Source: Halorhodospira halophila SL1 (GTDB lineage: Bacteria > Pseudomonadota > Gammaproteobacteria > Nitrococcales > Halorhodospiraceae). Taken from it: a stretch of 32,000 nucleotides of DNA. The stretch is from contig NC_008789.1 in the NCBI RefSeq assembly GCF_000015585.1, positions 1,680,001 through 1,712,000 on the forward strand. Direction: 5' to 3'. Both the position numbers and the translations under genes were made by a program. The notes under the pieces are model-generated. The model was not told the origin of the DNA and did no database searches. It was given only the letters and a program-made list of their open reading frames with translations. Shown here one piece after another: positions 8,138 to 32,000 of this stretch. Positions within the stretch are counted from its first letter, which is position 1; each line of letters opens with the position of its first letter.

Positions 8138-8139
8138 CT

Positions 8140-9447: not shown

Positions 9448-9451
9448 CACC

Positions 9452-9883
9452 GTGCGCGACTTCTTCTCGCAGCAGTTCCTGCTCTTCCTGCTGACCGGGG
9501 GGATCGCGGCCGTCGTCAATTTCGGCAGCCGGATCGTCTACAGCCTGTTCATGGGGTATTCGGCGGCGATCGTTACCGCCTACATCACCGGCATGATCAC
9601 CGCCTACGTGCTGGCGCGCCTTTTCGTCTTCCGCTCCCCCCAGGTGCGTACGGTGCGCTCGGCGGTCTGGTTCACACTGGTCAACGTCGCCGCCGTCGCC
9701 CAGACCTGGGCCGTCAGTGTCGCCCTCGCCTACTACCTCCTACCGGCGGCCGGCGTGGAAGCATTCCGCGAGGAGATCGCCCACGCCGTCGGCATCGCGG
9801 TACCGGTCTTCTCCAGTTTCCTCGGGCACAAGTACCTCTCCTTCGCAACGCCAGCTGCACGGGACTCGAAGCAACCTCGCTGA
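9452..9883 (+). CDS. GtrA-family small membrane protein (polyprenyl-phosphate-sugar handling)
   Basis: The GTG at 9452 is 4 nt after the upstream stop. The 143-aa product has four hydrophobic helices, the N-terminal signature FLLFLLTGGIAAVVNFGSRIV, and a C-terminal ..FLGHKYLSF typical of GtrA. Confidence 0.75.
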   Translation: MRDFFSQQFLLFLLTGGIAAVVNFGSRIVYSLFMGYSAAIVTAYITGMITAYVLARLFVFRSPQVRTVRSAVWFTLVNVAAVAQTWAVSVALAYYLLPAAGVEAFREEIAHAVGIAVPVFSSFLGHKYLSFATPAARDSKQPR

Positions 9884-9908
9884 TCGCCCCACCGCGACCA
9901 TGCGGCGC

Positions 9909-11439: not shown

Positions 11440-12575
11440 TACCACGCCTCCTTTCGTTCGCGCCCCCTCTTTTGCAGGATCCGATCCCGGGCTGCGCGAA
11501 GTTGCCGCTCCAACCACAGCATCGGTCGCCGCCTCTGCAGGGAGACCCGCAGCATCTCTCCCTTCCCGCTAGCCAGGCTGCGCTTGTACTGGCTCTCACC
11601 AACGAGGAAATCGTAGCAGTGGACCCCGGTCTCCGCCGCGGCCGCCATGGCGAGGATATGGCTCACGAGCCCCGGCTTGCTGCGGGGATCTGCCTCATAA
11701 GCGAGGCCACTCTGGTAATTGCACTCATAGCCCCCCGCCCGCAGGTTGTAGAGATAGCCAATCACCCGCTCCGAGGTCTGCACCCGGATCATGCGAGCGC
11801 TACCATCCTGGGCGCCCGCCTCGATTAGGTGCTCATGGAATGCACGCATGAACGGATCGGCGAAAGCGCCGACCTTGCCCTGCGCCTGCCAGCGCGCTTG
11901 ATGCAGCTCGACCATATGCTCGAACCACCGCACGGCCATGGCCGGGTCCGTGGCGACCTCAAAGGCGAGGGCGTCGAGCCCACCGTACTGCCGGATCGAC
12001 CGCCGAATCTGTTGCCGCGTGTTGCTGCTGAGACTGCTGAGGAGTTGATCCGGCCTGGCATCCCGAGACTGCAACCCGCGAAAATAGTAGGGTCGACGAT
12101 CTATCACCACCGGCATCAGCGGCAAGTGGGAACACTCCAACCAGCACGCCCGCCAACGATCCGCCTCGACCCACCCCAGGCAGAGTTCGTCCCAGTCTGT
12201 GTCCGTGAGCAGACCCTCGACCATGCCGGCGAACGCCTTCGCCTCGGCCCCCACCGGGGCCAGCGGCGCGTTGTGCTCGACCGTCAAGTAGTCAAGGCGC
12301 GGATCGCCCGTCTCGTTGAGAAAGAGCATCCGACTGCTGAAAACAAGGGCCCGACGAACCCTGGCCCTGCCGAGCGTGGCCAAGGCTCTCGGCTCGCCGC
12401 CCCACTGGTACAGGACGGTTTCCAGGGCCGGGGGGACCGGGTCGTCTGGAGCTAATTTGTGGAGGGTTCGGTGCCAGGCCGTCGTCAGGAACGGATTCGG
12501 GAGAGCATCTTGCGCCAGGCGATCCCAGGCAGAGGCCACTTGCGCGAAAGGCTGTCGCTGAACCGAGGGCTCCAT
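11439..12575 (-). CDS. GNAT-fold acyltransferase of the CelD/BioF2-like (FemAB-related) type, as found in PEP-CTERM EPS loci
   Basis: 378-aa ORF. The C-terminal region IGYLYNLRAGGYECNYQSGLAYE...GLVSHILAMAAAAETGVHCYDFLVGESQYKRSLA resembles the CelD/BioF2-like acetyltransferase domain (DFL.G...YK). Confidence 0.7.
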   Translation of the reverse strand: MEPSVQRQPFAQVASAWDRLAQDALPNPFLTTAWHRTLHKLAPDDPVPPALETVLYQWGGEPRALATLGRARVRRALVFSSRMLFLNETGDPRLDYLTVEHNAPLAPVGAEAKAFAGMVEGLLTDTDWDELCLGWVEADRWRACWLECSHLPLMPVVIDRRPYYFRGLQSRDARPDQLLSSLSSNTRQQIRRSIRQYGGLDALAFEVATDPAMAVRWFEHMVELHQARWQAQGKVGAFADPFMRAFHEHLIEAGAQDGSARMIRVQTSERVIGYLYNLRAGGYECNYQSGLAYEADPRSKPGLVSHILAMAAAAETGVHCYDFLVGESQYKRSLASGKGEMLRVSLQRRRPMLWLERQLRAARDRILQKRGRERKEAW

Positions 12576-13725: not shown

Positions 13726-15144
13726 ATGGACCTTCGTGACATCGTCTTCGGCACCATCCTGATCTCCAGCCTGCCGCTGATCTTATACAGGCCCTGGATC
13801 GGGCCGCTGATGTGGTACTGGGTGGGCTTTTTTAATCCGCACCAGCAGGCGTGGGGGTTCTTTGCCGGTGCTCAGGTCGCACTCCCCGTCGCTATCGCGA
13901 CCCTCGCAGCCACCGCCTATACCCAGGAGAAGCGCTGGCCACCGATGACTCGGGAGATGTGGCTGGTCTTCCTTCAGGTCATCCTGTTCACGGTGATTAC
14001 GTTCGGCTTCGCCTGGCTCCCGGATGACGCGTTCGGGCTCTGGGATCAGCGGATGCGCATCATCTTGATGACCGTCATCACGGTAATACTGATCTACGGG
14101 AAGCAGCGCGTCATGGCGCTGCTGGCCATGATCACCCTGTCCATCGCCTACTTCGGCTTCAAGGGCGGCCCCTATACGCTCAGCACCGGATTCGGGGGGA
14201 TGGTACTCGGGCCACAGGGAACGTTCATCGGCGGCAATACCGATATCGGCCTGGCTCTGGTGATGATCCTGCCTCTCACCTTAATCCTCGCCCGCCAGGT
14301 CTATCACGGGCGTTTCGAACTCCCGATCCGCATCCCCGGCTTCGAAACCTGGCACCGGCTGATTGGGCTCGCCCTCTACGGCGGCTTCTGGATGACCCTG
14401 ATCTCGATCATTGGGACCCAGTCCCGCGGTGCCTGGGTAGCCCTGGCATGCACCTGGCCGTTCATCTTCTGGCGCCTGCGCTTCAAGTGGGCCCTGGTCG
14501 CCGCCGTCGTCCTCGCGGTTGGGGTCATCGGAGTCACGGTCCCGGACCGCGTGGCCCACGAGTGGCAGACCCTTGTCGAATACGAGGACGACGGGTCCGC
14601 ACAGGGCCGATTCCACGCGTGGGATGTGGCTTGGAACATTGGGGTGGAGCACCCGCTGACCGGTGCCGGCTTTGGTGCCCAACGCATCGACGCCGAGCTA
14701 TGGCGCTCCTACAGTAGCGATGGTGATGGCAGCCCGCTCGCACAGCACAGCATCTACTTCCAGACGCTGGCCGAGAACGGATTCCTGGGGCTCGGGCTGT
14801 TCCTGGCACTACTTGGCTTTACGCTGCTCACCCTGAACCGTCTGCGTCGCGACGCCGCTCAGCACCCGGATACGCTCTGGATCAGCGAGTGGTCGTGGGC
14901 CCTCGCCATCGGCCTGATCGGTTACTGCGTCGCGGGGGCCTTCTTGAGCCTCGCGTACTTCGACCTGATGTACGCCTTTATCGCCCTAGCCATCATCCTG
15001 CGCCGAGAATTTGAGGATGTCCGGGTCGCGGTACGGTACCCCAGCCCGACCACCGCCACAGCACCACAACAAACGCCGGTGGGCGAAGTCGGCTATCGTC
15101 CGGGTACTCCGCCGCGTGCCCTCTATCGACGCCCCCCTGCATAA
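13726..15144 (+). CDS. O-antigen ligase-like membrane protein (putative O-glycosylation ligase, exosortase A system-associated type)
   Basis: 472 aa and polytopic. The N-terminus LILYRPWIGPLMWYWVGFFNPHQQAWGF and the SRGAWVALA, RFHAWDVAW...HPLTGAGFG and HSIYFQTLAENGFLGL motifs follow the Wzy_C/O-antigen ligase pattern. Confidence 0.8.
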   Translation: MDLRDIVFGTILISSLPLILYRPWIGPLMWYWVGFFNPHQQAWGFFAGAQVALPVAIATLAATAYTQEKRWPPMTREMWLVFLQVILFTVITFGFAWLPDDAFGLWDQRMRIILMTVITVILIYGKQRVMALLAMITLSIAYFGFKGGPYTLSTGFGGMVLGPQGTFIGGNTDIGLALVMILPLTLILARQVYHGRFELPIRIPGFETWHRLIGLALYGGFWMTLISIIGTQSRGAWVALACTWPFIFWRLRFKWALVAAVVLAVGVIGVTVPDRVAHEWQTLVEYEDDGSAQGRFHAWDVAWNIGVEHPLTGAGFGAQRIDAELWRSYSSDGDGSPLAQHSIYFQTLAENGFLGLGLFLALLGFTLLTLNRLRRDAAQHPDTLWISEWSWALAIGLIGYCVAGAFLSLAYFDLMYAFIALAIILRREFEDVRVAVRYPSPTTATAPQQTPVGEVGYRPGTPPRALYRRPPA

Positions 15145-15155
15145 CGGGAGTTTGC

Positions 15156-16601
15156 ATGTACTGCCTGATCGATCAGCACGGTGCGATGTCCGGACACCCC
15201 TCCCATCAATTGGCCTTTGATAAGGCCGATGACGAGCCCACACTGTTGGCCTGGTGGGCTTTTGATGGCGAGTGTCTGCAGATCCAGGCTGACCGCCTCG
15301 GCGTCATCCCACTCTTCCATGGCGTGTTACCGACGGGAGGCTACGTCGTCTCGGACTCACTGCTCGAGGCTTGCTCTCTCGCCGGGCAACCGCTGGATCT
15401 TGACCATGCGGCGATCGCCGTTTTCCTCCGGTTGGGCTACTACCTGGGGGAGGATACCCCCTTCAGGGCGCTCCGGGTTCTAGCCCCCGGAGAGCGCATC
15501 CATTTCACACCGCGAAGGCTCACACGGCATGTTCCAGATTTACCCATCATGGCGCCGCGAGCGTTACCTCGAGACGCGGCAATCAGGGAGTACGATTCCC
15601 TTTTTTCGGAGGCCATTCGTGCACGATCCGTCGGCACTCAGCTAAAGACCCTCCCATTATCCGGGGGGCGCGACTCCAGGCACATCCTACTGGAACTGGA
15701 TCGCTTGGGCCGCCGACCTGAAAGGGCCGTGATCAGTGCTAGAAGCGGAACGGACGACACAGATCGCGCTGTCACTTTGGCGAAATACTTGGACCTTGAC
15801 ATCGACCTGGTCACCCAACCAGAAGACTTCTTCGCCCTCGAAAAGGAGAAAAACCGACGCAACCATTTCCTGACCGATGAGAACGCCTGGTACCTGCCTA
15901 TTGCGCAACACCTCCAGGGAACCGTACTAGACGGGTTGGGCGGCGATGTCCTGTCCAACGGTTATGGTTTCAAGCGTCGACTGGCCTCCCTGATGGCAGA
16001 CAACCGACTAAGCGAAGCCGCGTCGTTCTTGCTTCCATCCACAGCGAGCACCAAAGTCCTGAAACCCTTCTACCGCGACCAGTGGTCTCGGACAGTCGCA
16101 ATGAATAGGTTGCATGCAGAGCTCGCAAGGCATGCAAAGGCGCCCAACCCAGTCGCTTCCTTCCTATTCTGGAATCGCACTCGTCGTGAGGTGGCGCTTA
16201 TCCCCTTGACCCTAATCGCACCGCGGGCAGACGTCGCCTTGCCGTATCTCGACGCCTCCCTGCTGGACTTTTTCCTTTCCCTCCCGGCTGAGGACTTTGG
16301 AGAACCAGGTTTCCATGATGAGGTACTAGCTACCACCTATCCAAAAGCCTCCCAGCTCCCCTATGCCACGAAAAAAAAAGCCACGGGACAACGCTGGGCT
16401 CGCATCAAGCGCTCTCGCGCTTATCACCAGCAACTTCGCGCTGCGTTTGATCTTTACCGCCATGGGCATTTAGTCGGCCACGGGTGTCTGCCATATTTGC
16501 TCGAATCCTTCATTACGGGACACGACCGTCCTATCTCATGGCCGTTTCGTCCACTGCACCCCCTAGAACAACTGTTAGAGCATACCGCTGTACGAATGTA
16601 A
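15156..16601 (+). CDS. Asparagine-synthetase-B-like PP-loop adenylating enzyme with a truncated, Cys-less N-terminal domain
   Basis: The PP-loop LSGGRDS is present. DRLGVIPLFH and LRLGYYLGEDTPFRALRVLAPGE resemble the AsnB inter-domain region. The protein begins MYCLIDQ rather than MCG, and only about 100 aa precede the synthetase domain. It starts 12 nt after the upstream stop. Confidence 0.75.
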   Translation: MYCLIDQHGAMSGHPSHQLAFDKADDEPTLLAWWAFDGECLQIQADRLGVIPLFHGVLPTGGYVVSDSLLEACSLAGQPLDLDHAAIAVFLRLGYYLGEDTPFRALRVLAPGERIHFTPRRLTRHVPDLPIMAPRALPRDAAIREYDSLFSEAIRARSVGTQLKTLPLSGGRDSRHILLELDRLGRRPERAVISARSGTDDTDRAVTLAKYLDLDIDLVTQPEDFFALEKEKNRRNHFLTDENAWYLPIAQHLQGTVLDGLGGDVLSNGYGFKRRLASLMADNRLSEAASFLLPSTASTKVLKPFYRDQWSRTVAMNRLHAELARHAKAPNPVASFLFWNRTRREVALIPLTLIAPRADVALPYLDASLLDFFLSLPAEDFGEPGFHDEVLATTYPKASQLPYATKKKATGQRWARIKRSRAYHQQLRAAFDLYRHGHLVGHGCLPYLLESFITGHDRPISWPFRPLHPLEQLLEHTAVRM

Positions 16602-16805: not shown

Positions 16806-18008
16806 TCAGACCGAGGCATAACTTTCTCCCAGGGCTTCCGCAGCCACTACGTTCTCTGCAAAATCCCGTACCCGACCGATGATCTCGGGCTCAACCCAGG
16901 CCGCGCGGTGGCACCCCCAATCCCAGTTTCCTTCGATAAGGTAAGGCCCTTGTGGTGAAATAGCGATATCCCAACCGATCGTTCGAACACCTGGAAACAC
17001 GTCGCGGTGCGCGGCCTCCGCCACCTGCAGCACGCTGGTCCAGAAGGGGATCTTAACCCCCCCGAGCACTGCACCGCTATCCGGGTGTCTTTCACATGCG
17101 GTCACCTCAAAACCGTGAATCCAGAACCCAGTATCCCGCGTGGCTCCCCCGACTAGGTCAACGCCTATTATTACCCGCCCATCCCGGGCATTGTCTGTTA
17201 TCGCCCCCCGCGCCCCGATCCTTAGAACGGCAACAAGCGGGACCACATTACGGCTGCCATCGATTCCGGTGACGATGCGCAGCGTATTCAGGGAGTTTTT
17301 ATGGATTCGCTCGAGGACGGGGTGATTATAAATTTTCCTCTGCACAACAAATGGGCTATCGTAAGAGGCCATTTCTAACTCATTCGGGATGTCAAAAGAA
17401 GGCTGGCCATAATCAGAGCGCACACCGATGCAGAATATTTGCTTCCCTTGCTGACCGAACTGCGGCTTGGCAATAATTTCTTCACCCGAGAGCACATCGG
17501 GATCATTTTTGAAAAATGGTTCTTTGGCATGCTGACCATCCGGTACAAACGCCCCACGATGGAGCGTTCCTATAACCGGCGCGGTGGGCACCCCCTGCTC
17601 AGCCACCTTAAAGTAGAAGTCGAGTTTGTCAGTTAGGCTTTGGGCGTGCTCTTGGCCATTTCTGGAAGAGGTGTCCGCATAGCAGGTCCCCTGCCCGTAC
17701 GAATCACGGACACTGTGGAAATAGGCGGGCCGGAGGATACGTATACGTCGCCGTCGCAAATCACAGTTAAACGCTAGGTAAGCGTCCGGTGTATTCTTAA
17801 AAATGACGGTCGCGTACAAGAGCTCGAAAAACCGACGGGGCAACGGCTTCCGCTCCTGATAACAATGGCCGCGGGGGTTGCTCCTAGCCAGACGAATTAG
17901 TGGCCGGATATTTCTGCAAATAAATGCACCCCTCCAGTAGTAGGGCTGCGCCTTTGACCATAACCGTCCGAGCCAATGGCTTTTGGATATTTTATTTTTG
18001 TTAATCAT
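16806..18008 (-). CDS. ATP-grasp protein of the sugar-transfer-associated type (ATPgrasp_ST-like)
   Basis: 400-aa ORF in the lowest-GC part of the window; the ATG at 18008 has GGGAG upstream. The segment SLNTLRIVTGIDGSRNVVPLVAVLRIGARGAITDNARDGRVIIGVDLVGG...HPDSG resembles the conserved core of that family. The call rests on recollection of the family pattern only. Confidence 0.55.
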   Translation of the reverse strand: MINKNKISKSHWLGRLWSKAQPYYWRGAFICRNIRPLIRLARSNPRGHCYQERKPLPRRFFELLYATVIFKNTPDAYLAFNCDLRRRRIRILRPAYFHSVRDSYGQGTCYADTSSRNGQEHAQSLTDKLDFYFKVAEQGVPTAPVIGTLHRGAFVPDGQHAKEPFFKNDPDVLSGEEIIAKPQFGQQGKQIFCIGVRSDYGQPSFDIPNELEMASYDSPFVVQRKIYNHPVLERIHKNSLNTLRIVTGIDGSRNVVPLVAVLRIGARGAITDNARDGRVIIGVDLVGGATRDTGFWIHGFEVTACERHPDSGAVLGGVKIPFWTSVLQVAEAAHRDVFPGVRTIGWDIAISPQGPYLIEGNWDWGCHRAAWVEPEIIGRVRDFAENVVAAEALGESYASV

Positions 18009-22379: not shown

Positions 22380-23115
22380 ATTCCTCGAGGGCTGTTTTTG
22401 AAAAAAAAAACACGCACAGACGTAAATCTTGTCTTTAAAAGCATATCGGCACTATCCCTTGACCTTTTTTAAACGCTTCTCTTCCGCACCCACGCCTCAC
22501 CCAAGCGCGGGCAACTTGCCACTGGGAAAAAACCCGCGACCACGGACTGCCCAGCTGTACGCCCGAGGTCTTCGCATAGCTTCGAAAAACACTTGAACAT
22601 GAATGCTGGCAGCGACAGGGCTGCGAAACCTCGTTTACAATAAAGACCATTTTCCGGGCCGCCCACCGCCGCCATCCCAAACGGTATTGATCTATTCGCA
22701 CTTGATGCCCAAACTGTAACAACTCAAATAGGCTGCGACGGCACGGACTCCATCATAGCGCCGGAGGGGTTTCTTTTAAATAGGCCGGATCAGAGCCTTT
22801 ATAGTTTTTTCAGGACCAAATAGCAAGGTTCTCCACCATCGGGAATAGCGATGATAGACAGCGACCGCCACAAACGAAGCGTTGGAGAACCCCACCTTCC
22901 AGGATCCGGGTGCACCGGGGCTGCCCTTCGCCCGCCCGGAGCACCACCGCACTCGACCGGCACGTTCCATCGATTAGTTGCCCGCACGCGCCCGCCCCGA
23001 GCAGGCGATGGAGAAATGGTGCAACTAGGCAGAGCGTTGAGCTTGCGCCCCCCCCGGTCAGCAACTACGCTCAAATTGTGAGTGGGATCCCTATACATGT
23101 GAGGCCGATCAATCG

Positions 23116-24705
23116 ATGCTACGCCTTTTCCCAGACCTTGTTTTCGCTTCCGCCAGGACGCGCCCCGAAAACATCGCGCTAACTCAAGCTGATCAGCGCT
23201 GGAGCTATCAACAGGTTGCGGAGGAAGTCGCATCATTAGCTACCGCCCTTCGCGGTTTCGGCCTTGAAGCCAACGAACGGGTCGCAATCTATTTGGAGAA
23301 GCGCCCAGAGGCCGTTATGGCACTTTTCGGTGCTAGCGCAGCTGGCGGCGTCGCGATTCCAGTCAACCCAGCGCTGAGACCGCACCAGGTCGCACACATC
23401 CTCGACGATTCCGGGGCAACTGTGCTGATCACCTCCGGTCCTCGCTTACAACAACTTTGGGATGCTCTAGACGGAGCACAGCCCTTCAAGGCCATCGTGG
23501 TAGGCGACTCGGATGCTGGAGAGCACCGGCCAAATCAACCCATCCCGTGGGGCGCGTGGCCTCGGGTGACATCCCCCCCCACCCCGCGGCGAATCGACTC
23601 CGATATGGCGGCAATCCTGTATACCTCAGGCAGCACCGGCCTACCCAAGGGGGTGGTGCTCTCCCACCGCAACCTCGTTACCGGCGCCATCAGCGTCAGC
23701 GAGTACCTCCAGAACGCCGCCTCAGACCGGATCCTCAGTGTCCTACCACTGAGTTTCGACTATGGCCTGAGCCAGATTACGACAGGCTTTGCCACAGGCG
23801 CCGAGGTTATCCTCCTCAACTACCTGCTACCCCAGGATGTCCCCCGCGCTGTGTCGCGTTACGAGGTTACCGGGCTGGCGGCCGTGCCTCCGCTGTGGAT
23901 TGAATTGGCCAATCTTGATTGGCCCGACGCTGCCCGCAGTACCCTGCGTTATATCACCAATTCGGGTGGCGCGATGCCACCTTCAACGCTTCAAAAACTC
24001 CGCGACCAATTACCCGGAACGGCACCCTATCTGATGTACGGGCTCACAGAAGGGTTCCGTTCCACTTACCTACCCCCAGAGGAGATCGATCGGCGACCCG
24101 GGTCGATCGGCAAGGCTATCCCCAACGCCGAGGTGCAGGTCGTGCGAGAAGATGGTTCGCCCTGCGCCCCCAATGAGCCCGGCGAGCTCGTTCATCGGGG
24201 TCCTTTGGTTAGTCTGGGATACTGGCAGGCCCCCGACACGACCGCTAAACGCTTCCGCCCAGCACCCGGACAACCTGCTGGACTCCCACTGCCGGAGATC
24301 GCGGTCTGGTCGGGAGATACGGTTTACGCTGACGAAGATGGCTACCTCTATTTCGTAGGCCGGAACGATGAGATGATCAAGAGTTCCGGCTACCGAATCA
24401 GCCCCCAAGAGATCGAGAACGTCCTCGACGGAACGCCTGGACTCACGGAGGCAGTCGCCATCGGTGTTCCGCATCACCGCTTAGGAGAGGCAATACTAGT
24501 CCTCGCTACCGTAGAGGAGGGGCCAGCCGGTGCATGTGAGGACGATTTGCGGGCGAGGTGCCGCCAACAACTCCCCCCCTTCATGGTGCCATCAGCCTTC
24601 CTCCTTTGGACGCAACCACTGCCACGCAATCCCAACGGTAAGGTCGATCGAGCAGGCCTTCGCCATCGTCACGCGGAGTTCTTTGCCGAGACGGAGGAAC
24701 CATGA
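23116..24705 (+). CDS. AMP-forming acyl-CoA/acyl-ACP ligase (exosortase A system-associated type)
   Basis: Adenylate-forming core motifs ILYTSGSTGLPKGVV, YGLTE and GDTVYADEDGYLYFVGRNDEMIKSSGYRISPQEIE are present, plus the terminal PRNPNGKVDR lysine motif. Confidence 0.9.
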   Translation: MLRLFPDLVFASARTRPENIALTQADQRWSYQQVAEEVASLATALRGFGLEANERVAIYLEKRPEAVMALFGASAAGGVAIPVNPALRPHQVAHILDDSGATVLITSGPRLQQLWDALDGAQPFKAIVVGDSDAGEHRPNQPIPWGAWPRVTSPPTPRRIDSDMAAILYTSGSTGLPKGVVLSHRNLVTGAISVSEYLQNAASDRILSVLPLSFDYGLSQITTGFATGAEVILLNYLLPQDVPRAVSRYEVTGLAAVPPLWIELANLDWPDAARSTLRYITNSGGAMPPSTLQKLRDQLPGTAPYLMYGLTEGFRSTYLPPEEIDRRPGSIGKAIPNAEVQVVREDGSPCAPNEPGELVHRGPLVSLGYWQAPDTTAKRFRPAPGQPAGLPLPEIAVWSGDTVYADEDGYLYFVGRNDEMIKSSGYRISPQEIENVLDGTPGLTEAVAIGVPHHRLGEAILVLATVEEGPAGACEDDLRARCRQQLPPFMVPSAFLLWTQPLPRNPNGKVDRAGLRHRHAEFFAETEEP

Positions 24706-25937
24706 ACCCGCACGTCGCTCACTTGCCCTGTATGGAGGTCTTCTCCATACAGGACGGTGAATTAACGCTACAAGGCGTCCCGGTCACACAGTTGGCCGAG
24801 AGCGCCGGACAGACGCCGTTCTTTGCTTATGATCGAGCCATGATCGACCACCGCGTGGCGGCATTGCGCGCTACGCTCCCGCCCGAGATCCATCTTCACT
24901 ACGCGATCAAGGCCAATCCTATGCCGGAACTCGTCCAGCACCTCGCCCGAATGGTCGACGGCTTGGACGTGGCGTCCGCTGGGGAGCTGGCGCTGGCACT
25001 TGAAACCGAGACCGCCCCGGCCGATATCTCCATTGCGGGGCCGGGGAAACAGGATCACGAGCTTGCTCGGGCATTGGAATCCGGCGTCACCATCAACTTG
25101 GAGTCTCCCGGCGAGCTGGAGCGCCTGGCCGAGCTGGCCAACCGGCACGGGCGCACCCCCTCTGTGGCGATCCGGATCAATCCCGATTTCACGCTCAAGA
25201 CGTCTGGTATGCAGATGGGCGGCGGCCCCAAGCAGTTCGGGATTGATACCGAGCAGGCCCCGGCAGTTCTGCATCGAATCGGCGAACTCTCTTTCGATTT
25301 TCGAGGTTTCCAGATCTTCGCAGGTTCCCAGAACCTGAACACGGACGCCCTCATCACTGCTCAGAACGGCATCTTCGAACTCTTCAACCGCCTTGCCGAC
25401 GAGGCTCCCGCTCCGGTCACTCTGCTCAACATGGGGGGAGGGCTTGGCATTCCCTACTTCGCCAACGATAGACCCCTGGACTTAGACCGCTACGGGGAAC
25501 ACCTGCACCGCCATGTCGCGGCTTGTCGCCAGAGGTTCCCGAATGTCCAGATCGTGCTTGAGCTCGGCCGCTACCTGGTGGGTGAGGCCGGAGTTTATGT
25601 CGTTCGCGTTATCGATCGTAAGGTTTCGCGCGGGCAGGTCTTCCTGGTCACCGATGGCGGCATGCACCACCACCTTGCAGCCTCGGGGAATCTTGGCCAA
25701 ACCATACGCCGCGACTACCCCATCGCCCTTGCCACGGCGATGGACCACCCCGCCGCGGAGGACGTGTCTGTTGTCGGTCCGTTGTGCACGCCGCTAGATG
25801 TTCTGGGTAGTCGCGTCCCTCTCCCCTACGCGAAGCCCGGGGATCTGATCGTGGTGTTCCAGTCCGGCGCTTACGGTCTGAGTGCGAGCCCAACCTATTT
25901 TCTTAACCACCCTAAGGCAGCGGAATTACTTGTTTGA
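24702..25937 (+). CDS. PLP-dependent decarboxylase, fold type III (Orn/DAP/Arg decarboxylase family; exosortase A system-associated type)
   Basis: The ATG overlaps the ligase stop (ATGA at 24702-24705) and GGAGG lies upstream. The PLP-lysine motif HLHYAIKANP is present. So are GGGLGIPY and the C-terminal PLCTPLDVLG...GDLIVVFQSGAYG typical of this family. Confidence 0.9.
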   Translation: MNPHVAHLPCMEVFSIQDGELTLQGVPVTQLAESAGQTPFFAYDRAMIDHRVAALRATLPPEIHLHYAIKANPMPELVQHLARMVDGLDVASAGELALALETETAPADISIAGPGKQDHELARALESGVTINLESPGELERLAELANRHGRTPSVAIRINPDFTLKTSGMQMGGGPKQFGIDTEQAPAVLHRIGELSFDFRGFQIFAGSQNLNTDALITAQNGIFELFNRLADEAPAPVTLLNMGGGLGIPYFANDRPLDLDRYGEHLHRHVAACRQRFPNVQIVLELGRYLVGEAGVYVVRVIDRKVSRGQVFLVTDGGMHHHLAASGNLGQTIRRDYPIALATAMDHPAAEDVSVVGPLCTPLDVLGSRVPLPYAKPGDLIVVFQSGAYGLSASPTYFLNHPKAAELLV

Positions 25938-26103
25938 CCCCGGACCAAGTCACTGCATTGCTGCGTGAGACCTGCTCCCGCCGGACTTTCCTGTCAGCCC
26001 AGAGCGCTTCATCCAGGGCGCTTGCCCAGCCCTTAGCCAATCGTAATAAAATAAAAGTTTAGAAACAGAATCCAAGAATCAAAAACACGAAGGCAGCTCG
26101 AAA

Positions 26104-27105
26104 ATGGCCAGCACCCCAAGCGTCTCCGTCATCATCCCCGCGCTGAACTGTGCGCCTTTTATTAGTGCCGCGATCGAGAGCGTCCTCAAACAGGGTGGTG
26201 ATCAGCTAGAGGTACTTGTCATTGACGACGGATCTACGGACGAGACCGCAAATATCGTCCGGAGCTATCCAAGCCCCGTGCATCTGCTCCGCACGCAGAC
26301 ACCTCGATCCGGCGCTGCTGCCGCCAGAAACGTGGGGCTGCGCCACGCACACGGCCGCCTCATAGCCTTCCTGGACGGAGACGATGTCTGGTTACCCGGG
26401 AAGCTAGCACTGCAGACCAGCACATTGGAGAACCACCCCGACGTAGCACTCGTCTGCACTCGCGGCGGAAGATGGGAACCGGACAACGAATCCTATGAAC
26501 AAGCCCATCAACGCTTCATCACTGCCGATGCCACCTCGGAACCAACTGACTTCTACCCCGCCGGCTGGATTTACCACATGCTTTTGCTGCGACCAGCCTG
26601 GGTGTGGACCTCTACAGTGGTAATGCGCCGAGAACTGGTGGAGAAGGTCGGTGAGTTTGACGAGTCTTTGCGCTTAGGCCAGGACTACGAGTATTGGCTT
26701 CGCTGCTCCCGCGAAACCCAAATTTTACGCGTGGCGAAAGTGCTAGCCCTCTACCGACAACACGCCAACAATTCCACCAATAAACCGCGCAACCGGAACT
26801 TTGAACTAGAAGTGGTTCAAAGAGCGCTCGATCGCTGGGGAAGGCATGGCCCCGATGGCCAAGCTGCTGATAAGAAACAAATCAAGAAGAGATTTGCACG
26901 AATGCATTTCCGTATGGGGTATCAGCATTTCTGGGCTGGAGACCCGCGCATTGCAGCAAAAGAATTCTATCACTCGATCCGCACCAACCCGAGAGCCTGG
27001 CGTGCGTGGGCCTATGCCAGCGCATCAGCAGTACGCGGTCTTTTCGTCCCCACCCCCCGGAACCAGAAACCTCCGAGCGGGGGCGAGCGCCGGCACGGAG
27101 AGTAG
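26104..27105 (+). CDS. Family 2 glycosyltransferase
   Basis: Motifs SVIIPALNCAPFISAAIESVL, VLVIDDGSTDET and the DxD motif FLDGDDVW. It is preceded by an AT-rich stretch (aataaaataaaagtttagaaacagaatcc). Confidence 0.9.
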   Translation: MASTPSVSVIIPALNCAPFISAAIESVLKQGGDQLEVLVIDDGSTDETANIVRSYPSPVHLLRTQTPRSGAAAARNVGLRHAHGRLIAFLDGDDVWLPGKLALQTSTLENHPDVALVCTRGGRWEPDNESYEQAHQRFITADATSEPTDFYPAGWIYHMLLLRPAWVWTSTVVMRRELVEKVGEFDESLRLGQDYEYWLRCSRETQILRVAKVLALYRQHANNSTNKPRNRNFELEVVQRALDRWGRHGPDGQAADKKQIKKRFARMHFRMGYQHFWAGDPRIAAKEFYHSIRTNPRAWRAWAYASASAVRGLFVPTPRNQKPPSGGERRHGE

Positions 27106-27107
27106 GC

Positions 27108-28340
27108 ATGCCCGCCATCGATCCCATTCCAAAGATGCCGCTACTCACACAAACGCTATGGCGCGGCACAGGCCGGGACAAACTGCATTATCCGTCGGTG
27201 CTTGATCGACCTAACCTGTACCACTTTAACTGGGCGCGGGAAGGACTCGAAATGGCCCTCCGCGCTTTGGGTCTCAAACCGAACGATGAAGTGCTGCTGC
27301 CCGCCTACCACTGTTTATCCATGATTACGCCGGTACTGCGCGCCGGCGGTCAGCCAACCTTCTACCCGGTCCAAGCCGATACACGCATCGAAGTCTCTGA
27401 ACTCAGTCGCCACATTACAGCGCGGACCCGCGTCGTCATAGCTCCCTACTTCTTCGGTTTCGACCAACCCATGAGCGCCATTAGGGAACTCTGTGATCGA
27501 TCCGGAGTGACCTTGATCGAAGACTGCGCCCACGCCCTGTACGGCACACCGGGGGGCCAACCCGTTGGCTCAATCGGTCACTACGCAGTGGCCAGCCCTT
27601 GGAAATTCCTACCCGTGACTCGGGGCGGCTGCCTGGTCGTGAATGATCCCGTCACCCATCCGGCCCCCAAGATGCCCGCCGGACCAACGGCCCGCGCCGA
27701 ACTTAAGGACGGCCTCAACACCCTTGAACGTTCCATGGACTATGGGCGACTGCCCCTGCTCAACCCCTTCTTGCGGCCTATCCTGTCGCTAAGCGAAGCG
27801 CTCTCGCGCCGCCGCCACTCCACTCAGGGGGTAGAAGCCGATTCACGCCCATTGGACGAATCAATCGCTTGGGCTGACCCGCCCCCGGCACCCCTGAGTC
27901 GCGTCGGTCGTTGGTTGCTACAACATAGCGACCGAATGGCTCAGTGCGAACTGAGGCGTGAATACTACCTGCGCCTGGCCGAGGCCTGGCGCGACCTGCC
28001 GGGGGCCACCCTCCTCCACAGACGATTACCCGACCATGTCGTTCCTCAGGTCGTACCCTTAACCACGCGGAACCCCCGGGACTTCGCGGCGGCGCTGCTT
28101 TCCGAGGGCATACCGGTTATCCGGTTCGGTGGGCAACTGTGGCCACGAACGCCCCCGCAGACATGCACGAATGCGCCCATGCTATCCGCTTGCGTATTCC
28201 AGTTTCCGTGCCACCCAAGCTTGACCACCGCGGAGGTCGACTCGATCGCAAGACGCGTGCGAGCAATCCTGCTCAACACCCCATCCGGTACCCCCTCGCC
28301 CCGGGATTACGGCCGATCAGCGGAGATGGAACAACCATGA
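27108..28340 (+). CDS. DegT/DnrJ/EryC1/StrS-like PLP-dependent sugar aminotransferase (or dehydratase)
   Basis: The ATG at 27108 is 2 nt after the GT2 stop. EVLLPAYHCLSMITPVLRAGGQPTFYPV, TRVVIAPYFFG, LIEDCAHALYG and VASPWKFLPVTRGG (candidate PLP Lys) follow the DegT pattern. Confidence 0.7.
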   Translation: MPAIDPIPKMPLLTQTLWRGTGRDKLHYPSVLDRPNLYHFNWAREGLEMALRALGLKPNDEVLLPAYHCLSMITPVLRAGGQPTFYPVQADTRIEVSELSRHITARTRVVIAPYFFGFDQPMSAIRELCDRSGVTLIEDCAHALYGTPGGQPVGSIGHYAVASPWKFLPVTRGGCLVVNDPVTHPAPKMPAGPTARAELKDGLNTLERSMDYGRLPLLNPFLRPILSLSEALSRRRHSTQGVEADSRPLDESIAWADPPPAPLSRVGRWLLQHSDRMAQCELRREYYLRLAEAWRDLPGATLLHRRLPDHVVPQVVPLTTRNPRDFAAALLSEGIPVIRFGGQLWPRTPPQTCTNAPMLSACVFQFPCHPSLTTAEVDSIARRVRAILLNTPSGTPSPRDYGRSAEMEQP

Positions 28341-29416
28341 GCACCAGATACCCGTGGACTGTCGAGCGACTCGACTTGAACTCCAACGAGCTTCTCCCCG
28401 ATGACTGGCAGCGACTCAATCAACGCTGTTGTGGCGCCCACCCGCTGTTATCCGCCGATTTCTTCACCGCTCTGCTCCGCCACTTTCCTGGCGAAGACGT
28501 CTACCTAGCCGCGCTGCATGATCGCGAGCTACCGATCGCTATGGCGCTGTTAACCCCCCTCACCGCGATGCGCTGGGCACTCTACCATCCGAGCCAGGCC
28601 CCTTTGGGACCCATCCTGCTCGATTCGTCACAAGTGGATCCCGATCGCGCCCTGGCAGACCTCCTCGATACCCTACCGGGGCAGACCCTGCAACTGGATT
28701 TAACTCAGCTAGATCCCACTTTTTTCCCTGTGGCGTTCGACTCGAATCGAGTCGAGAGGATCCACTATGTCACGACTATGGCGGTATCCCCTGAGGGCAG
28801 CTTCGAAACATACTTAAGCAACCGACCGCGCAAGTTACGCTCCAACCTGCGACGCTACCGGCGCCGACTCGAAGAGGCAGGCATGCAAATCGAACTGAAG
28901 TGCCTGACCGACCCGCAGGCGGTAGCAGAGACAGTCGATGAGCACGGCAGATTGGAGAGTTCCGGATGGAAGGGTGAAATCGGCACGGCCATGCGCCCGG
29001 ACAACTCTCAAGGACGATTTTATCGTGACTTGATGAAAGATCATGCATATGAGGGTAAGGGGTGGGTTTATTGTCTAAACGTCGACGGCAGCATTGCCGC
29101 CACTTGGCTGGTCATCCGAGGCGGTGGCATGATCTCGATGCTAAAAACCGCCTATGATGAATCCCTTGCCAAGTACTCAGTGGGTCGAGTCCTCCTAGTT
29201 GAGACCTTGGAGGAGTTGTTTAAGATCGATGGCGTCCAAAGCATAGAGTTCTACACGAATGCCAATGCGGATCAACTGGAGTGGGCGACGGATAGCCGTT
29301 CGATCGAGCACCTCAATTTTTACCGCCACCAGGCCGTACAGCGGTCACGTGCGGCGGCACGCCGGGCAAACCAGGTATTCAGGCAGATCCAGGCCGTTTG
29401 GAAGCGAAAACCTTGA
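28337..29416 (+). CDS. Second CelD/BioF2-like (FemAB-related) GNAT-fold acyltransferase
   Basis: The ATG at 28337 overlaps the upstream stop (ATGA). RKLRSNLRRYRRRLEE...HGRLESSGWKGEIGTAM...FYRDLM...IAATWLVIRGGGMISMLKTAYDES resembles the same domain as the 11439-12575 product. Confidence 0.65.
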   Translation: MSTRYPWTVERLDLNSNELLPDDWQRLNQRCCGAHPLLSADFFTALLRHFPGEDVYLAALHDRELPIAMALLTPLTAMRWALYHPSQAPLGPILLDSSQVDPDRALADLLDTLPGQTLQLDLTQLDPTFFPVAFDSNRVERIHYVTTMAVSPEGSFETYLSNRPRKLRSNLRRYRRRLEEAGMQIELKCLTDPQAVAETVDEHGRLESSGWKGEIGTAMRPDNSQGRFYRDLMKDHAYEGKGWVYCLNVDGSIAATWLVIRGGGMISMLKTAYDESLAKYSVGRVLLVETLEELFKIDGVQSIEFYTNANADQLEWATDSRSIEHLNFYRHQAVQRSRAAARRANQVFRQIQAVWKRKP

Positions 29417-30617
29417 GTGCCTTCCGCCCCACTTGGCGGGCCACCAACGCAGAGGAGGTGGACAAATTCTGCCACGCTGGCTGGACGTCTCGCCACGCCC
29501 ATAAGGCGTCCCGGGTGGAATTCACAAAATCCGCCCCGAAGGTGCCCACATCCTTTGCCGCACTGGCTAGTGATACTTCGCCTTGGGTCACGCCCGAGAA
29601 GAGCTCAGGCAACCGCCTCAGGTCTCCCCCTAGCCACCGCATACGTTGGCCAACCGGGTAGGAATCCGGAATCTCCGGCTCCTTGCCATGAAGTAGTTGC
29701 CAGGCATAGTAAGGGAAAGCAACTCCGCACTGGATCGGCAACCCAATCGACCCCCAGCAGCGGCCGTTGATCTCCATCAAAGCGGCCCGTCCAGATGCTG
29801 CATCATAGCGCATCTCCACCATCGCCAGCCCCTGCCACTCCAGCGCCTTCAGCAGTTCCACAGCGTAACTGCGCAACACTGGATCCGGCCTTTCACTAAC
29901 GCAACGCACCGCAACACCACCGCTGCGTGGGAGCTCCTTGAGACGGCGATGCTGAAATATCGTCACCGGTCTACCCCGGTCCATCAGCACCTCAACACCG
30001 ACCCCACTTCCCGGAACGTACTCCTGGACCATCCACTCGGTACCCCACGCGCTGTGGGCGTTCAGAAAATCCTGCAGCTCGCTGTGTCGATTAAAATAGC
30101 GGATGCGTACCGGACTGGGCCTGCCACGATCTGAGGGTTTAACCACAACCGGGAAATGCAGATTTTCAATCCAGCTCTCTGGCTCTTCATCGGCGCGAAT
30201 GTAAAGGGTCCGCGGCATAGGCACCCCGAGACGCTCGGCTACAGCTAGGGTTCCCGACTTATCCAGAACGCTTCGCGCCCGCTCTTTGTCCGGGTACATG
30301 CGCAGAATGCGCTCACCGAGTACGTCATCACAAGCCGCTAAAGCGCTAAGAGCACCATCGCCGACTGGCACTACGGTATCGATACCGTAGCGATCAACAG
30401 CCCCAAGGAGGCTCTCACAGAAAGCATCAAGCGAGTCATCTGGATGCTCGAGCGTCAGATATCCTTCGAGGGCTTTCGTTTTGATTGACGCTCCCTCGCC
30501 GGAAAAACAAGCCCCATAGACTGGGATTCCCTTGCCACTCAGACAACGCGCGACGGGCACCACAATCCGCGGGAAATGCCCCAGCAGCAGGGTGGCAGGC
30601 GGTCTGTCAATCTTCAT
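29379..30617 (-). CDS. ATP-grasp ligase (carboxylate-amine ligase type)
   Basis: 412 aa. It has a pre-ATP-grasp Rossmann-like N-terminus, then FPVVVKPSD, WMVQEYVPGSGVGVEVL and LAMVEMRYDAASGRAALMEINGRCWGS (Mg/ATP-binding E-x-N). Its ATG directly abuts the hydrolase 1 stop (TGAATG). Confidence 0.8.
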   Translation of the reverse strand: MKIDRPPATLLLGHFPRIVVPVARCLSGKGIPVYGACFSGEGASIKTKALEGYLTLEHPDDSLDAFCESLLGAVDRYGIDTVVPVGDGALSALAACDDVLGERILRMYPDKERARSVLDKSGTLAVAERLGVPMPRTLYIRADEEPESWIENLHFPVVVKPSDRGRPSPVRIRYFNRHSELQDFLNAHSAWGTEWMVQEYVPGSGVGVEVLMDRGRPVTIFQHRRLKELPRSGGVAVRCVSERPDPVLRSYAVELLKALEWQGLAMVEMRYDAASGRAALMEINGRCWGSIGLPIQCGVAFPYYAWQLLHGKEPEIPDSYPVGQRMRWLGGDLRRLPELFSGVTQGEVSLASAAKDVGTFGADFVNSTRDALWAWRDVQPAWQNLSTSSALVARQVGRKALKVFASKRPGSA

Positions 30618-31532
30618 TCAGCACCCATCACGACGGCTCGCTTCAAGCCACTGCAGCGTCCATTCCGCCACCTGATTGCGCCAGACGGCACGAGAGAAGG
30701 TGTGATCCGCTCCCTCCAGGCGGCGGGTAGTAACTCGTTCCTGATCAAGCAGCCCAAGCCACGAGTCGTTTCGTGTCGCCGTATCGACAAACTCGGCCGC
30801 AGTCAGGTCGTCTCCGCTAAGCACGAGCAGGATCGGCCCGTCGAAGCGGCGCCAGCCGGCTGCCATGCGCACCGGGAGAGGATCCCCAGGGGCCAAACCT
30901 GCTGACTGACCCTCCGGCCAATGGCCACGCCGCGCATTCGCCCGCAGGACAACAGCTACCTTTTCCATTAGCCCGCGGGCAGATCTCGTCAGACTGAGTC
31001 GCCCCGTGAGGAGGCGCATCCAGAAGTCCCCACTGAACAGTTGCCGCCAGTAGTAGTGGCGCAGATAAGCACTGGCAATCCCGGCCTCAGTGCGCACCCA
31101 AGGATTGAGGAGCACAAGCCCGCTGATTCGGCGATCCTGCGACGCATAGAGCAATGCCGCGGAGGCCGCATCACACAACCCCCAAACCACAACCTCGCGA
31201 ACCGCTGGAGTAAGCCGCTGAAACTCATCGATCGCGCAGCCGATATCCGTCTCTACAGCGTCGTAGCCGCGCTGCTCGCCACCCGCATCTCCCATGCCTC
31301 GATAGTCAAAACGAAAGACCGGAACCCCGTGCTCCGCTAGGTAGCGGGCGAGCAGGAGAAACTGTCGGTGACTACCGATCCGATACTGCGGACCACCGAC
31401 GACCAACAGAAGACCACGCTCAGCGCTTTGCAACGGGCGGTGGAGGATGCCGGGCAACTCTTCCCCTTCAATGCGGAAGACGGTCGCCTCCTCCAGTGCC
31501 TCAGCACAGGCTAGCCGTGTTGCACTTGCCAT
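30618..31532 (-). CDS. Alpha/beta-fold hydrolase (hydrolase 1, exosortase A system-associated type) with Cys in the nucleophile elbow
   Basis: 304 aa. The elbow is VVWGLCDAAS (Cys120, codon 31173-31175) where G-x-S-x-G is expected. Downstream are LVLSGDDL (acid) and EGADHTF (His). Confidence 0.75.
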   Translation of the reverse strand: MASATRLACAEALEEATVFRIEGEELPGILHRPLQSAERGLLLVVGGPQYRIGSHRQFLLLARYLAEHGVPVFRFDYRGMGDAGGEQRGYDAVETDIGCAIDEFQRLTPAVREVVVWGLCDAASAALLYASQDRRISGLVLLNPWVRTEAGIASAYLRHYYWRQLFSGDFWMRLLTGRLSLTRSARGLMEKVAVVLRANARRGHWPEGQSAGLAPGDPLPVRMAAGWRRFDGPILLVLSGDDLTAAEFVDTATRNDSWLGLLDQERVTTRRLEGADHTFSRAVWRNQVAEWTLQWLEASRRDGC

Positions 31533-32000
31533 CGCGTGGTTTCCTCAATCAAGGCAGGTGCCGTACCAATCTCCTGGGTTGCCCAAAACGGCTCCCCGGG
31601 GAGGGCTTGTGCCTCCACCCGCACTTCTTGACTGCGCCAGCCCTGAACGATCCGCTGGCTAGCCGGAGAGAGCGAAGCCCCGCTTCCCTCCTCCTCACTA
31701 GAGCCGGACACCTCCAACCACAGAACTGAATCAGCCGGCGGCTGAAGGCGCGCACGATTAAGGGCTGCAGCTAACTGCGGGTGCAGAGTGTAGCCGGCAA
31801 TCTCCAGGGGCTCGCCCTGTTCCAACCGCTCTCGCAACGCTCGCGTAGTCTCGGCCGCCTCGCCGTTGAGCATGCCAGAAGCCATCCTCAGGCGTAAGAA
31901 TTGAGTCAAAAAGTGCTGACCATTGACCACCGGCTGCCAGAGTATGACGCCCCGCAGCGAAAAAGGCAGCCGTTCGGCCAAGTCAACCGCCAGCAGACAT
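31511..32000 (-). CDS. C-terminal part of a second alpha/beta-type hydrolase (hydrolase 2, exosortase A system-associated type); the 5' end lies outside the window
   Basis: The reading frame stays open to the window edge. The listed M at 31981 is a TTG inside the frame (upstream codons read ..LLAVDLAERLPF). The call rests on its position upstream of and overlapping hydrolase 1, plus GVILWQPVVNG. Confidence 0.55.
   Translation of the reverse strand, partial: CLLAVDLAERLPFSLRGVILWQPVVNGQHFLTQFLRLRMASGMLNGEAAETTRALRERLEQGEPLEIAGYTLHPQLAAALNRARLQPPADSVLWLEVSGSSEEEGSGASLSPASQRIVQGWRSQEVRVEAQALPGEPFWATQEIGTAPALIEETTRWQVQHG

Follow-up and report, generated by a model that had tools for sequence, protein, structure and literature searches.

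A candidate carrier-protein pathway among the exosortase-A-associated genes of Halorhodospira halophila

Four protein families, a ligase (TIGR03098), a decarboxylase (TIGR03099), hydrolase 1 (TIGR03100) and hydrolase 2 (TIGR03101), are labelled together as associated with the exosortase A system, and the question that they raise is what they make. We addressed it in a 32,000-nucleotide stretch of Halorhodospira halophila SL1 (contig NC_008789.1, positions 1,680,001 to 1,712,000; hereafter the window), for which an earlier annotation from the sequence alone (the original prediction) had named the four families and stated that no substrate or product has been assigned to them. That statement agrees with the literature we searched, which held no published function for the four families and nothing relevant by way of functional work on them or on NE2163. 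We propose that they belong to a five-gene pathway that would convert aspartate (or glutamate) into a β-alanyl (or 4-aminobutyryl, GABA) group on an acyl-carrier protein (ACP) and pass this group into the assembly of exopolysaccharide (EPS), coupled to a glycosyltransferase of the GT2 type. To the pathway as a whole we give roughly an even chance of being right.

A conserved core of five genes

The window is a portion of a large EPS locus of H. halophila, which around the set also holds TIGR03097 (above its cut-off at 13726–15144 in an NCBIfam profile search of the window), Wzy_C, glycosyltransferases and an ABC exporter. Beyond position 32000, where the window ends, we read the locus from the H. 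halophila contig NRRO01000018.1 (locus L001); proteins identical to these are also encoded on a contig of 2.68 Mb. With families called at NCBIfam curated cut-offs and Pfam thresholds, all four exosortase-A-associated families score above their cut-offs here, hydrolase 2 as the full protein, and the E-values of the complete proteins (1e-86 to 1e-213) exclude chance. The genes of the core, one of them beyond the window, are the following.

23116–24705, plus strand: AMP-forming ligase, a VinN-type adenylating enzyme by homology (TIGR03098; 710 bits, cut-off 592)
24702–25937, plus strand: BtrK-like fold-III decarboxylase dependent on pyridoxal 5'-phosphate (PLP) (TIGR03099; 591 bits, cut-off 478)
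30618–31532, minus strand: hydrolase 1, α/β-fold with a Cys-Asp-His triad (TIGR03100; 340 bits, cut-off 168)
31511–32000, minus strand: hydrolase 2, C-terminal 163 codons, the gene starting beyond the window end (TIGR03101)
Equivalent of 32337–32591 (L001 8942–9196), minus strand: 84-residue carrier protein of the ACP or peptidyl-carrier protein (PCP) type, 8 nucleotides (nt) upstream of hydrolase 2

The part of hydrolase 2 inside the window covers profile positions 116–264 and scores 140 bits against a cut-off of 203, because the gene is cut by the window end; the full protein of 272 residues, taken from the source contig, scores 288.6 bits against 202.75. These profile scores uphold the family identities of the original prediction. 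The features that it had described were also found in place, and the coupling of ligase and decarboxylase, whose stop and start codons overlap as ATGA (24702–24705), the AT-rich junction that follows and the tight packing on the minus strand were all verified. Hydrolase 2 and hydrolase 1 overlap by 22 nt, and no nucleotide (gap 0 nt) separates hydrolase 1 from an ATP-grasp gene to which we return below.

The same window edge accounts for the carrier protein. No ACP-like small open reading frame (ORF) had been seen originally, which is correct inside the window and incorrect for the locus, because the window edge cuts it: the gene lies about 340–590 nt past the end. Its 84-residue product passes the PF00550 (PP-binding) threshold with 22.3 bits against 20.8 and has the phosphopantetheine motif LDSMAV, matches the AmcB and AsbD carrier models in a profile search, and matches Protein Data Bank (PDB) entry 2LKI with E=1.4e-20. 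The DS of the motif is invariant in 73 of 73 sequences.

We gathered 80 loci of species-representative genomes, with hydrolase 1 as the anchor, and mapped homologues of the H. halophila genes by tblastn; 44 of the loci are flanked by 8 kb or more on either side. The ACP is encoded directly upstream of hydrolase 2 in 72 of the 80 loci (42 of the 44 with flanks) and hydrolase 2 is present in 77 (43 of the 44), and the order ACP, hydrolase 2, hydrolase 1 is a near-invariant co-directional trio. The ligase and decarboxylase genes are adjacent to each other wherever this was scored (22/22 loci). Only 15 of the 44 loci have this pair within 10 kb of the trio, usually on the opposite strand, 26–6,235 bp away and on either side. 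Given that its position varies so widely across loci, the split between the two halves, which the original prediction had treated as peculiar to this locus, is the normal layout. The conserved core is five genes: ligase, decarboxylase, stand-alone carrier protein, hydrolase 2 and hydrolase 1.

Ligase and decarboxylase

In a sequence search, the best PDB matches of the ligase are adenylation (A) domains of nonribosomal peptide synthetases (NRPS) and VinN, and for the pocket segment between motifs A4 and A5 VinN is the sole PDB match at E≤1e-8. VinN activates 3-methylaspartate at its side-chain carboxyl, with D230 binding the amino group and S299 and R331 binding the free α-carboxylate (PMC11253843, section 2.3; PMC7756342). 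An Asp, a Tyr, a Ser and an Arg of the ligase align without gaps with D230, F231, S299 and R331 of VinN, and the β13–β14 loop is shortened to the same length in both. Across 24 members of the ligase family, the Asp and the loop Arg are conserved in all 24, the Tyr in 22 and the Ser in 21, and the FD that binds the amino group in amino-acid-activating A domains is present in 24/24. On fatty-acyl-CoA ligase models the protein reaches 280–305 bits, far below their cut-offs. These alignments suggest that the ligase is VinN-like rather than a fatty-acid or CoA ligase. Its pocket, being VinN-like, appears to favour L-Asp, which would give a β-alanyl product, with Glu as the other possibility.

The decarboxylase has as its closest solved relative BtrK, the ‘L-glutamyl-[BtrI acyl-carrier protein] decarboxylase’, which it matches over its full length (290 bits, E=3e-85) with 40% identity over 380 residues. 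Other solved fold-III decarboxylases, including true diaminopimelate (DAP) decarboxylases, score at most 155 bits. Both our protein and BtrK carry the motif GPLCTPLD where DAP decarboxylase (DAPDC) carries CESGD. An assignment as LysA was rejected, as the protein scores 257.9 bits on TIGR01048, below the equivalog cut-off of 297.9. Since it resembles BtrK, the enzyme probably has as its substrate an acidic amino acid bound to the carrier and not a free one. The original prediction had invoked decarboxylation of free amino acids, a view that sits poorly with the 290 bits for BtrK against at most 155 for the free-substrate DAP decarboxylases.

A Cys hydrolase and its paralogue

Hydrolase 1 has a Cys in a G-L-C-D-A elbow, an Asp in an SGxD motif and a His in an xHTF motif, each invariant in 81 of 81 sequences. 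In an AlphaFold2 (AF2) model (pLDDT 84.9, pTM 0.82), Cys120 lies between the strand 113–119 and the helix 121–130, as a nucleophile elbow would. Hydrolase 2 differs at exactly this point. In an hhalign alignment of the two (probability 97.6%), the Cys of hydrolase 1 is matched by an Arg in hydrolase 2; this Arg is invariant in 76/76 sequences (WGLRxG), and hydrolase 2 has no conserved His. With Arg at the nucleophile position and no conserved His, hydrolase 2 is a nucleophile-less paralogue that would not be catalytic. Of the two acyl-transfer-capable hydrolases that had originally been counted, hydrolase 1 alone has the triad.

Gene fusions join the two hydrolases to each other and to a glycosyltransferase. 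In four protein clusters (579–623 residues; for example, in Telluria and Halioglobus) hydrolase 2 is fused to hydrolase 1 with both motifs kept, and in four other clusters (596–597 residues; Alkalilimnicola lineage) it is fused to a C-terminal GT2 half that is 42–44% identical to the GT2 encoded in the window. A GT2 of the window type also stands directly after hydrolase 1 in the Thioalkalivibrio loci L005, L007, L008 and L010. The GT2 is functionally linked to the module, and hydrolase 2 is probably a docking or adaptor subunit for the carrier protein, the glycosyltransferase or both. For hydrolase 1 we propose the role of a transferase working through an acyl-S-enzyme. From the triad, the fusions and the adjacency to GT2, we infer a complex of hydrolase 1 and hydrolase 2 that would deliver the aminoacyl group during glycosyl transfer.

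Two further arrangements around hydrolase 1 deserve mention. In about a third of the loci the gene immediately after hydrolase 1, in the same orientation, encodes a GT4-like glycosyltransferase of about 430 residues (a match to Glyco_trans_4_4 only), as at 946–2235 of L028 and in 26 other loci, which makes a further link between hydrolase 1 and glycosyl transfer. The locus of a relative of Alkalilimnicola ehrlichii (L088, 11520–14144 and 14221–18865) has the hydrolase 2::GT2 fusion, a hydrolase 1 homologue that has a DDE transposase as its neighbour and is shortened at the start by about 72 residues, and an ACP near which an amidinotransferase/DDAH-like gene and a second AMP-ligase are also encoded.

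Proposed pathway

The chemistry has precedent: Asp or Glu is ligated through its side chain to a stand-alone ACP and then α-decarboxylated by a PLP enzyme, which yields β-alanyl- or GABA-S-ACP (PMC11350588, section 3.1.3; PMC11284099). The α/β-fold enzymes CmaE, SyrC and CouN7 move acyl or aminoacyl groups off carrier proteins, CouN7 to a sugar hydroxyl (PMC8748450). By homology, the VinN-like ligase would first adenylate an acidic amino acid at its side-chain carboxyl and join it as a thioester to the holo-carrier protein. The BtrK-like decarboxylase would then strip the free α-carboxyl on the carrier, giving β-alanyl-S-ACP or, from Glu, 4-aminobutyryl-S-ACP. Active-site anatomy and the gene fusions suggest a third step, in which the Cys of hydrolase 1, in complex with hydrolase 2, would take over the aminoacyl group and hand it to an acceptor. 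In the fourth and weakest step, the acceptor may be a sugar in the lipid-linked repeat unit of the EPS, in whose synthesis the GT2 would take part, so that the polymer would gain a primary amine.

The half of this scheme formed by ligase, ACP and decarboxylase is well supported by homology. That the acceptor is EPS we infer, and the module probably decorates the exopolysaccharide. An aminoacyl unit on the polysaccharide had been among the products considered in the original prediction, and this comes close to our best reading; the N-acyl amine that it had offered beside it is less likely, since the decarboxylase is BtrK-like and the ligase VinN-like. In Halorhodospira and its relatives, the ATP-grasp enzyme could form one more amide, a speculative step, by acylating the new amine in the manner of BtrJ and VinM or by joining that amine to a carboxylate. 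A DegT-like enzyme and a FemAB-like GNAT encoded between the two halves would be a separate, recurrent pair for EPS decoration that may prepare the acceptor or modify it further.

Several observations weigh against this pathway. The argument for a transferase role of hydrolase 1 is its Cys triad, and the enzyme could be a thioesterase: a fold search with its model returned only generic esterases and lipases at a TM score of about 0.6, monoacylglycerol lipases among them. Family scans of the locus found no homologue of BtrH or VinK, the known transfer enzymes. Dependence of the decarboxylase on ACP would follow from one characterized relative at 40% identity. The chain length is drawn in two directions, the VinN-like pocket pointing to Asp and BtrK, which is the sole solved decarboxylase relative of this class and Glu-specific, pointing to Glu. 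The ligase–decarboxylase pair is near the trio in only about a third of the loci. In the Thioalkalivibrio loci named above, the order ACP, hydrolase 2, hydrolase 1, GT2, GNAT (Acetyltransf_1) is followed by a different AMP-ligase (about 27% identical to the ligase of the window) and no decarboxylase occurs within 10 kb; with another ligase beside the trio and no decarboxylase nearby, the carrier may bear different acyl groups in different genomes. The stretch of contig that we examined, roughly 42 kb, showed neither xrtA nor PEP-CTERM genes, and we know of no β-alanine- or GABA-bearing EPS from an organism with XrtA.

Alternative readings

An unlikely competitor keeps the carrier chemistry and makes hydrolase 1 a thioesterase, which would free β-alanine, GABA or a short peptide, or would proofread the carrier, with no transfer to polysaccharide. 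It draws on the structural neighbours of hydrolase 1, all of them hydrolytic esterases or lipases, on the fact that no acceptor has been identified, and on the common company that type II thioesterases keep with carrier proteins. The strictly invariant Cys in place of a Ser, however, favours a stable acyl-enzyme and transfer, and both the hydrolase 2::GT2 fusion and the adjacency of hydrolase 1 to GT2 tie the pair to glycan assembly. Conservation is also confined to EPS loci, and β-alanine made by this route would duplicate the work of PanD.

A bolder extension of the carrier-to-EPS pathway, which we regard as distinctly unlikely, would make the ω-aminoacyl group on the polysaccharide the amine nucleophile for exosortase A, so that XrtA would transpeptidate PEP-CTERM proteins onto a β-alanyl or GABA handle. 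Sortase uses a pentaglycine bridge built by FemXAB and archaeosortase uses an ethanolamine lipid, which are parallels to such a handle. If true, this extension would account both for the faithful association of these genes with xrtA and for the crowding of FemAB-like GNATs in the same loci.

We consider quite improbable the scheme first put forward for this locus, in which free DAP, lysine or ornithine is decarboxylated, the ligase activates a fatty or other acid, and the hydrolases and the ATP-grasp enzyme build an N-acyl or aminoacyl amine. The decarboxylase does belong to the superfamily of fold-III DAPDC and ornithine decarboxylase (ODC), with 258 bits on the LysA model, the ligase scores 280–305 bits on the fatty-acyl-CoA ligase models, and N-acyl amino acid synthases have reportedly been described, by Craig and colleagues in 2011, as neighbours of PEP-CTERM loci. 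All of these acyl-CoA ligase and LysA scores, however, fall far below their cut-offs, and BtrK leads every free-substrate decarboxylase by about 135 bits. The ligase combines the FD motif of amino-acid activation with a VinN-type pocket, the carrier protein is nearly universal, and hydrolase 2 appears not to be catalytic.

Very improbable, in our estimate, is a membrane lipid or a protein as the acceptor, with an aminolipid or modified PEP-CTERM proteins as the product. The families co-occur with exosortase A by curated definition, archaeosortase substrates are anchored through an amine-bearing lipid, and monoacylglycerol lipases appear among the fold neighbours of hydrolase 1, but the fusions and adjacencies indicate a glycosyltransferase and not lipid enzymes, and the conserved neighbourhood contains no lipid-synthesis genes. 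Finally, the idea that hydrolase 1 is a PhaC-like polymerase making a polyamide of the poly(β-alanine) or poly(GABA) type from an ω-aminoacyl thioester is barely credible: polyhydroxyalkanoate (PHA) synthases also have a Cys nucleophile in an α/β fold and the pathway would supply a thioester-activated monomer, but the matches listed, 17 from the PDB sequence search and 50 from the fold search, include no PHA synthase; hydrolase 1, with 304 residues, is half the size of PhaC, and such a polymerase would be without precedent.

Neighbouring genes

Between and around the two halves of the core, the window holds the following features.

22380–23115, no strand: non-coding gap upstream of the ligase, 737 bp, including an A10 run
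25938–26103, no strand: junction of 166 bp, its 3' part (about 26041–26103) visibly AT-rich when the sequence is read directly
26104–27105, plus strand: GT2 glycosyltransferase, with generic GT2 matches only
27108–28340, plus strand: divergent PLP enzyme of the DegT/DnrJ/EryC1 fold (PF01041, N-terminal half only)
28337–29416, plus strand: GNAT of the Acetyltransf_6 (FemAB/CelD-like) type (PF13480, 108.6 bits)
29379–30617, minus strand: ATPgrasp_Ter-type carboxylate-amine ligase (PF15632), abutting hydrolase 1

The GT2 and DegT-like genes are 2 nt apart and the DegT-like and GNAT genes overlap by 4 nt. The DegT-like enzyme falls below every NCBIfam cut-off and keeps the PLP lysine in an alignment with TlmJ. 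For the GNAT, the only NCBIfam match at E≤0.001 is a weak one to BspF (63 bits); it does not match TIGR03019 (FemAB-related, PEP-CTERM system-associated) and has no PDB sequence match. Homologues of the DegT-like enzyme lie within 10 kb of the trio in 11 of the 44 loci with flanks, those of the Acetyltransf_6 protein in 9, and the two are paired in 8; in many loci of Oxalobacteraceae and Nitrosomonadaceae (for example, L014, L033, L056, L066 and L074) they stand directly upstream of the ACP. The block of GT2, DegT-like and GNAT genes, which had been described as separating the two halves, is made up of recurrent neighbours of the trio, with GT2 fused to hydrolase 2 in Alkalilimnicola. A foreign insertion was considered for this block and rejected, as the recurrence and the fusions argue against it. 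In Nitrosospira and its relatives, the gene that immediately precedes the ACP, in the same orientation, encodes a conserved protein of about 240 residues (L022, 7810–8523, and 15 other loci), in the place held elsewhere by the DegT-like/GNAT pair; it has no Pfam or NCBIfam match.

The ATP-grasp enzyme has a narrower distribution. Its AF2 model (pLDDT 92.9) gives generic fold matches (biotin carboxylase and L-amino-acid ligases), and a PDB sequence search found weak Ddl matches only; its relatives are named ‘carboxylate-amine ligase’ in the sources, and most are fused to a C-terminal low-molecular-weight (LMW) phosphatase domain. One such fusion of 695 residues (ATPgrasp_Ter::LMW-phosphatase), 42% identical to the enzyme of the window, is encoded outside the window at L001 5329–7416 on the minus strand. 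The original prediction had asked how often an ATP-grasp is coupled to hydrolase 1; across the 80 species-representative loci, no homologue is a direct neighbour of hydrolase 1 and two loci (L011 and L023) have one within 10 kb, so that a general partnership with hydrolase 1 was rejected. The gene does follow hydrolase 1 in two further Halorhodospira genomes and a metagenomic relative (78% identical), overlaps it by 4 nt in Thioalkalivibrio AKL17, and follows the ligase–decarboxylase pair in Alkalilimnicola ehrlichii. It is a lineage-specific accessory of Ectothiorhodospiraceae, and its conservation is limited to Halorhodospira, Thioalkalivibrio AKL17 and Alkalilimnicola.

Nitrospira bockiana has a cluster in which the ATP-grasp::phosphatase fusion is accompanied by several GT2s, a DegT-like enzyme and three FemAB-like GNATs, and this cluster contains no ACP or hydrolase gene. 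The absence of these genes there suggests that ATP-grasp, LMW-phosphatase, Acetyltransf_6 and DegT-like proteins form a second, separable module for EPS decoration, which in H. halophila would be interleaved with the carrier-protein module. The H. halophila locus is unusually rich in amide-forming enzymes, as had been predicted: besides those already described, it encodes a second Acetyltransf_6 GNAT (11439–12575, minus strand), an Asn-synthase-like protein (15156–16601, plus strand), an ATPgrasp_ST (‘sugar-transfer associated’) protein (16806–18008, minus strand) and the ATPgrasp_Ter::LMW-phosphatase fusion. Taken as a whole, the original interpretation stands in its families, in the lack of an assigned function and in the extra amide-forming enzymes, and is revised in its split, its missing ACP, its free substrate, its two active hydrolases and its spacer.

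The gap upstream of the ligase is presumed to be the promoter or leader of an operon that runs from the ligase to the GNAT. It contains no credible ORF, ACP-like or other, a sigma-54 pattern occurs in it at or below chance, and a single weak sigma-70-like match lies at 22612–22641, in scans for sigma-70 sites and terminators that were uninformative. No terminator-like site was found in the 166-bp junction, and an Rfam scan of the whole window returned no family. In another Halorhodospira locus (L084), a Wzy_C gene lies beside the ligase, only 3 nt beyond it.

Elsewhere in the locus, positions 4986–11517 hold a cluster that resembles a donor pathway for a polyprenyl-phospho-pentose (like decaprenyl-phospho-arabinose), with a UbiA/HAD-like gene (4986–5726), a DprE2-like SDR (6371–7183; 181 bits, below its cut-off), an FAD oxidase (PRK07233; 8134–9447; 547 bits) and a GT-C glycosyltransferase (PMT_2; 10348–11517, minus strand). 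A protein of 1,131 residues (1464–4859, minus strand) has a VanZ-like domain at its N terminus and, in addition, a Wzy_C (O-antigen ligase/polymerase) domain, and gives no NCBIfam match. A scan of all ORFs of the window and of L001 for PEP-CTERM tails gave none that was credible. Outside the window, L001 2865–4064 encodes a sigma-54 activator closest to the PEP-CTERM-box regulator PrsR, which scores 429 bits against a cut-off of 502 and covers profile positions 139–445 only, without the receiver domain.

Distribution and known counterparts

The gene set to which the locus belongs is widespread and already catalogued, and the locus is an ordinary example of it. Among the candidates scored, 7,948 relatives of hydrolase 1 reach E≤1e-10, and the set is found in thousands of environmental Proteobacteria, many of them nitrifiers, methanotrophs and floc-formers. 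Not catalogued, as far as we found, are the five-gene carrier-protein pathway, the homology to VinN/VinL/VinO and BtrK, and the pairing of a Cys hydrolase with a dead partner, which in some genomes is fused to a glycosyltransferase. A five-gene set with VinN/VinL/VinO–BtrK chemistry, one Cys enzyme and a dead partner turns ‘function unknown’ into a proposal testable by mass spectrometry. An amine-bearing substituent of EPS, if it exists, would affect the charge and cohesion of flocs and biofilms, and could be the missing acceptor in exosortase-mediated protein sorting.

Compared with the curated set TIGR03098–TIGR03101, in the context of GenProp0652, this locus is a bona fide member, with all four families above cut-off. 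The curated set consists of four proteins of unknown function; our data add the ACP as a fifth constant member, a hydrolase 2 that is probably non-catalytic and a specific biochemical hypothesis.

The combination of an ANL enzyme, a carrier of about 85 residues and a PLP decarboxylase recurs in VinN/VinL/VinO (vicenistatin), FlvN/L/O (fluvirucin) and BolO/BolC/BolN (bolagladin), in which, as proposed here, an acidic amino acid is attached to the carrier by its side chain and α-decarboxylated there (PMC11284099, PMC7756342). Vin-type pathways feed antibiotic assembly lines of the polyketide synthase (PKS) and NRPS types, with a VinK-type acyltransferase, the second A-enzyme VinM and the peptidase VinJ. 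The locus described here differs in that it has no PKS or NRPS and no homologue of VinK or VinM; it has instead a Cys α/β hydrolase with a dead paralogue, in the EPS and exosortase setting of Proteobacteria.

Transfer in the butirosin pathway is carried out by a Cys enzyme, BtrH, which is papain-like, whereas hydrolase 1 has the α/β fold. Both systems use a carrier, and in the BtrI/J/K/H/G route to the 4-amino-2-hydroxybutyrate (AHBA) side chain of butirosin, BtrK, 40% identical to the decarboxylase here, acts on γ-Glu-S-BtrI (PMC11350588). The final acceptor in butirosin is of the amino sugar type, and the ATP-grasp enzyme BtrJ takes part in amide formation. Loading here would be done by an ANL ligase and not by an ATP-grasp enzyme, which is absent from most loci, and there is no homologue of the hydroxylase BtrO/V or of BtrG.

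CmaE and SyrC use a Cys nucleophile. With hydrolase 1 they and CouN7 share the idea of shuttling a group from a carrier to a nucleophile, a likeness drawn from descriptions and not from sequences. Hydrolase 1 has an inactive, obligate-looking partner, whereas none is described for CmaE, SyrC or CouN7.

In the DltA/DltC system, a small carrier receives its amino acid from an ANL ligase, and the cell-envelope polymer on which the aminoacyl group is finally placed gains a primary amine. The concept of this D-alanylation of teichoic acids is the same as that proposed here, but it involves no decarboxylation and uses the MBOAT protein DltB together with DltD. The ligase here is nearer to NRPS A domains and VinN, and the 60 PDB matches listed, out of 106 at E≤1e-30, do not include DltA. 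Seen beside these counterparts, the exosortase-A-associated genes would represent the chemistry of antibiotic assembly lines put to a new use in envelope polysaccharide.

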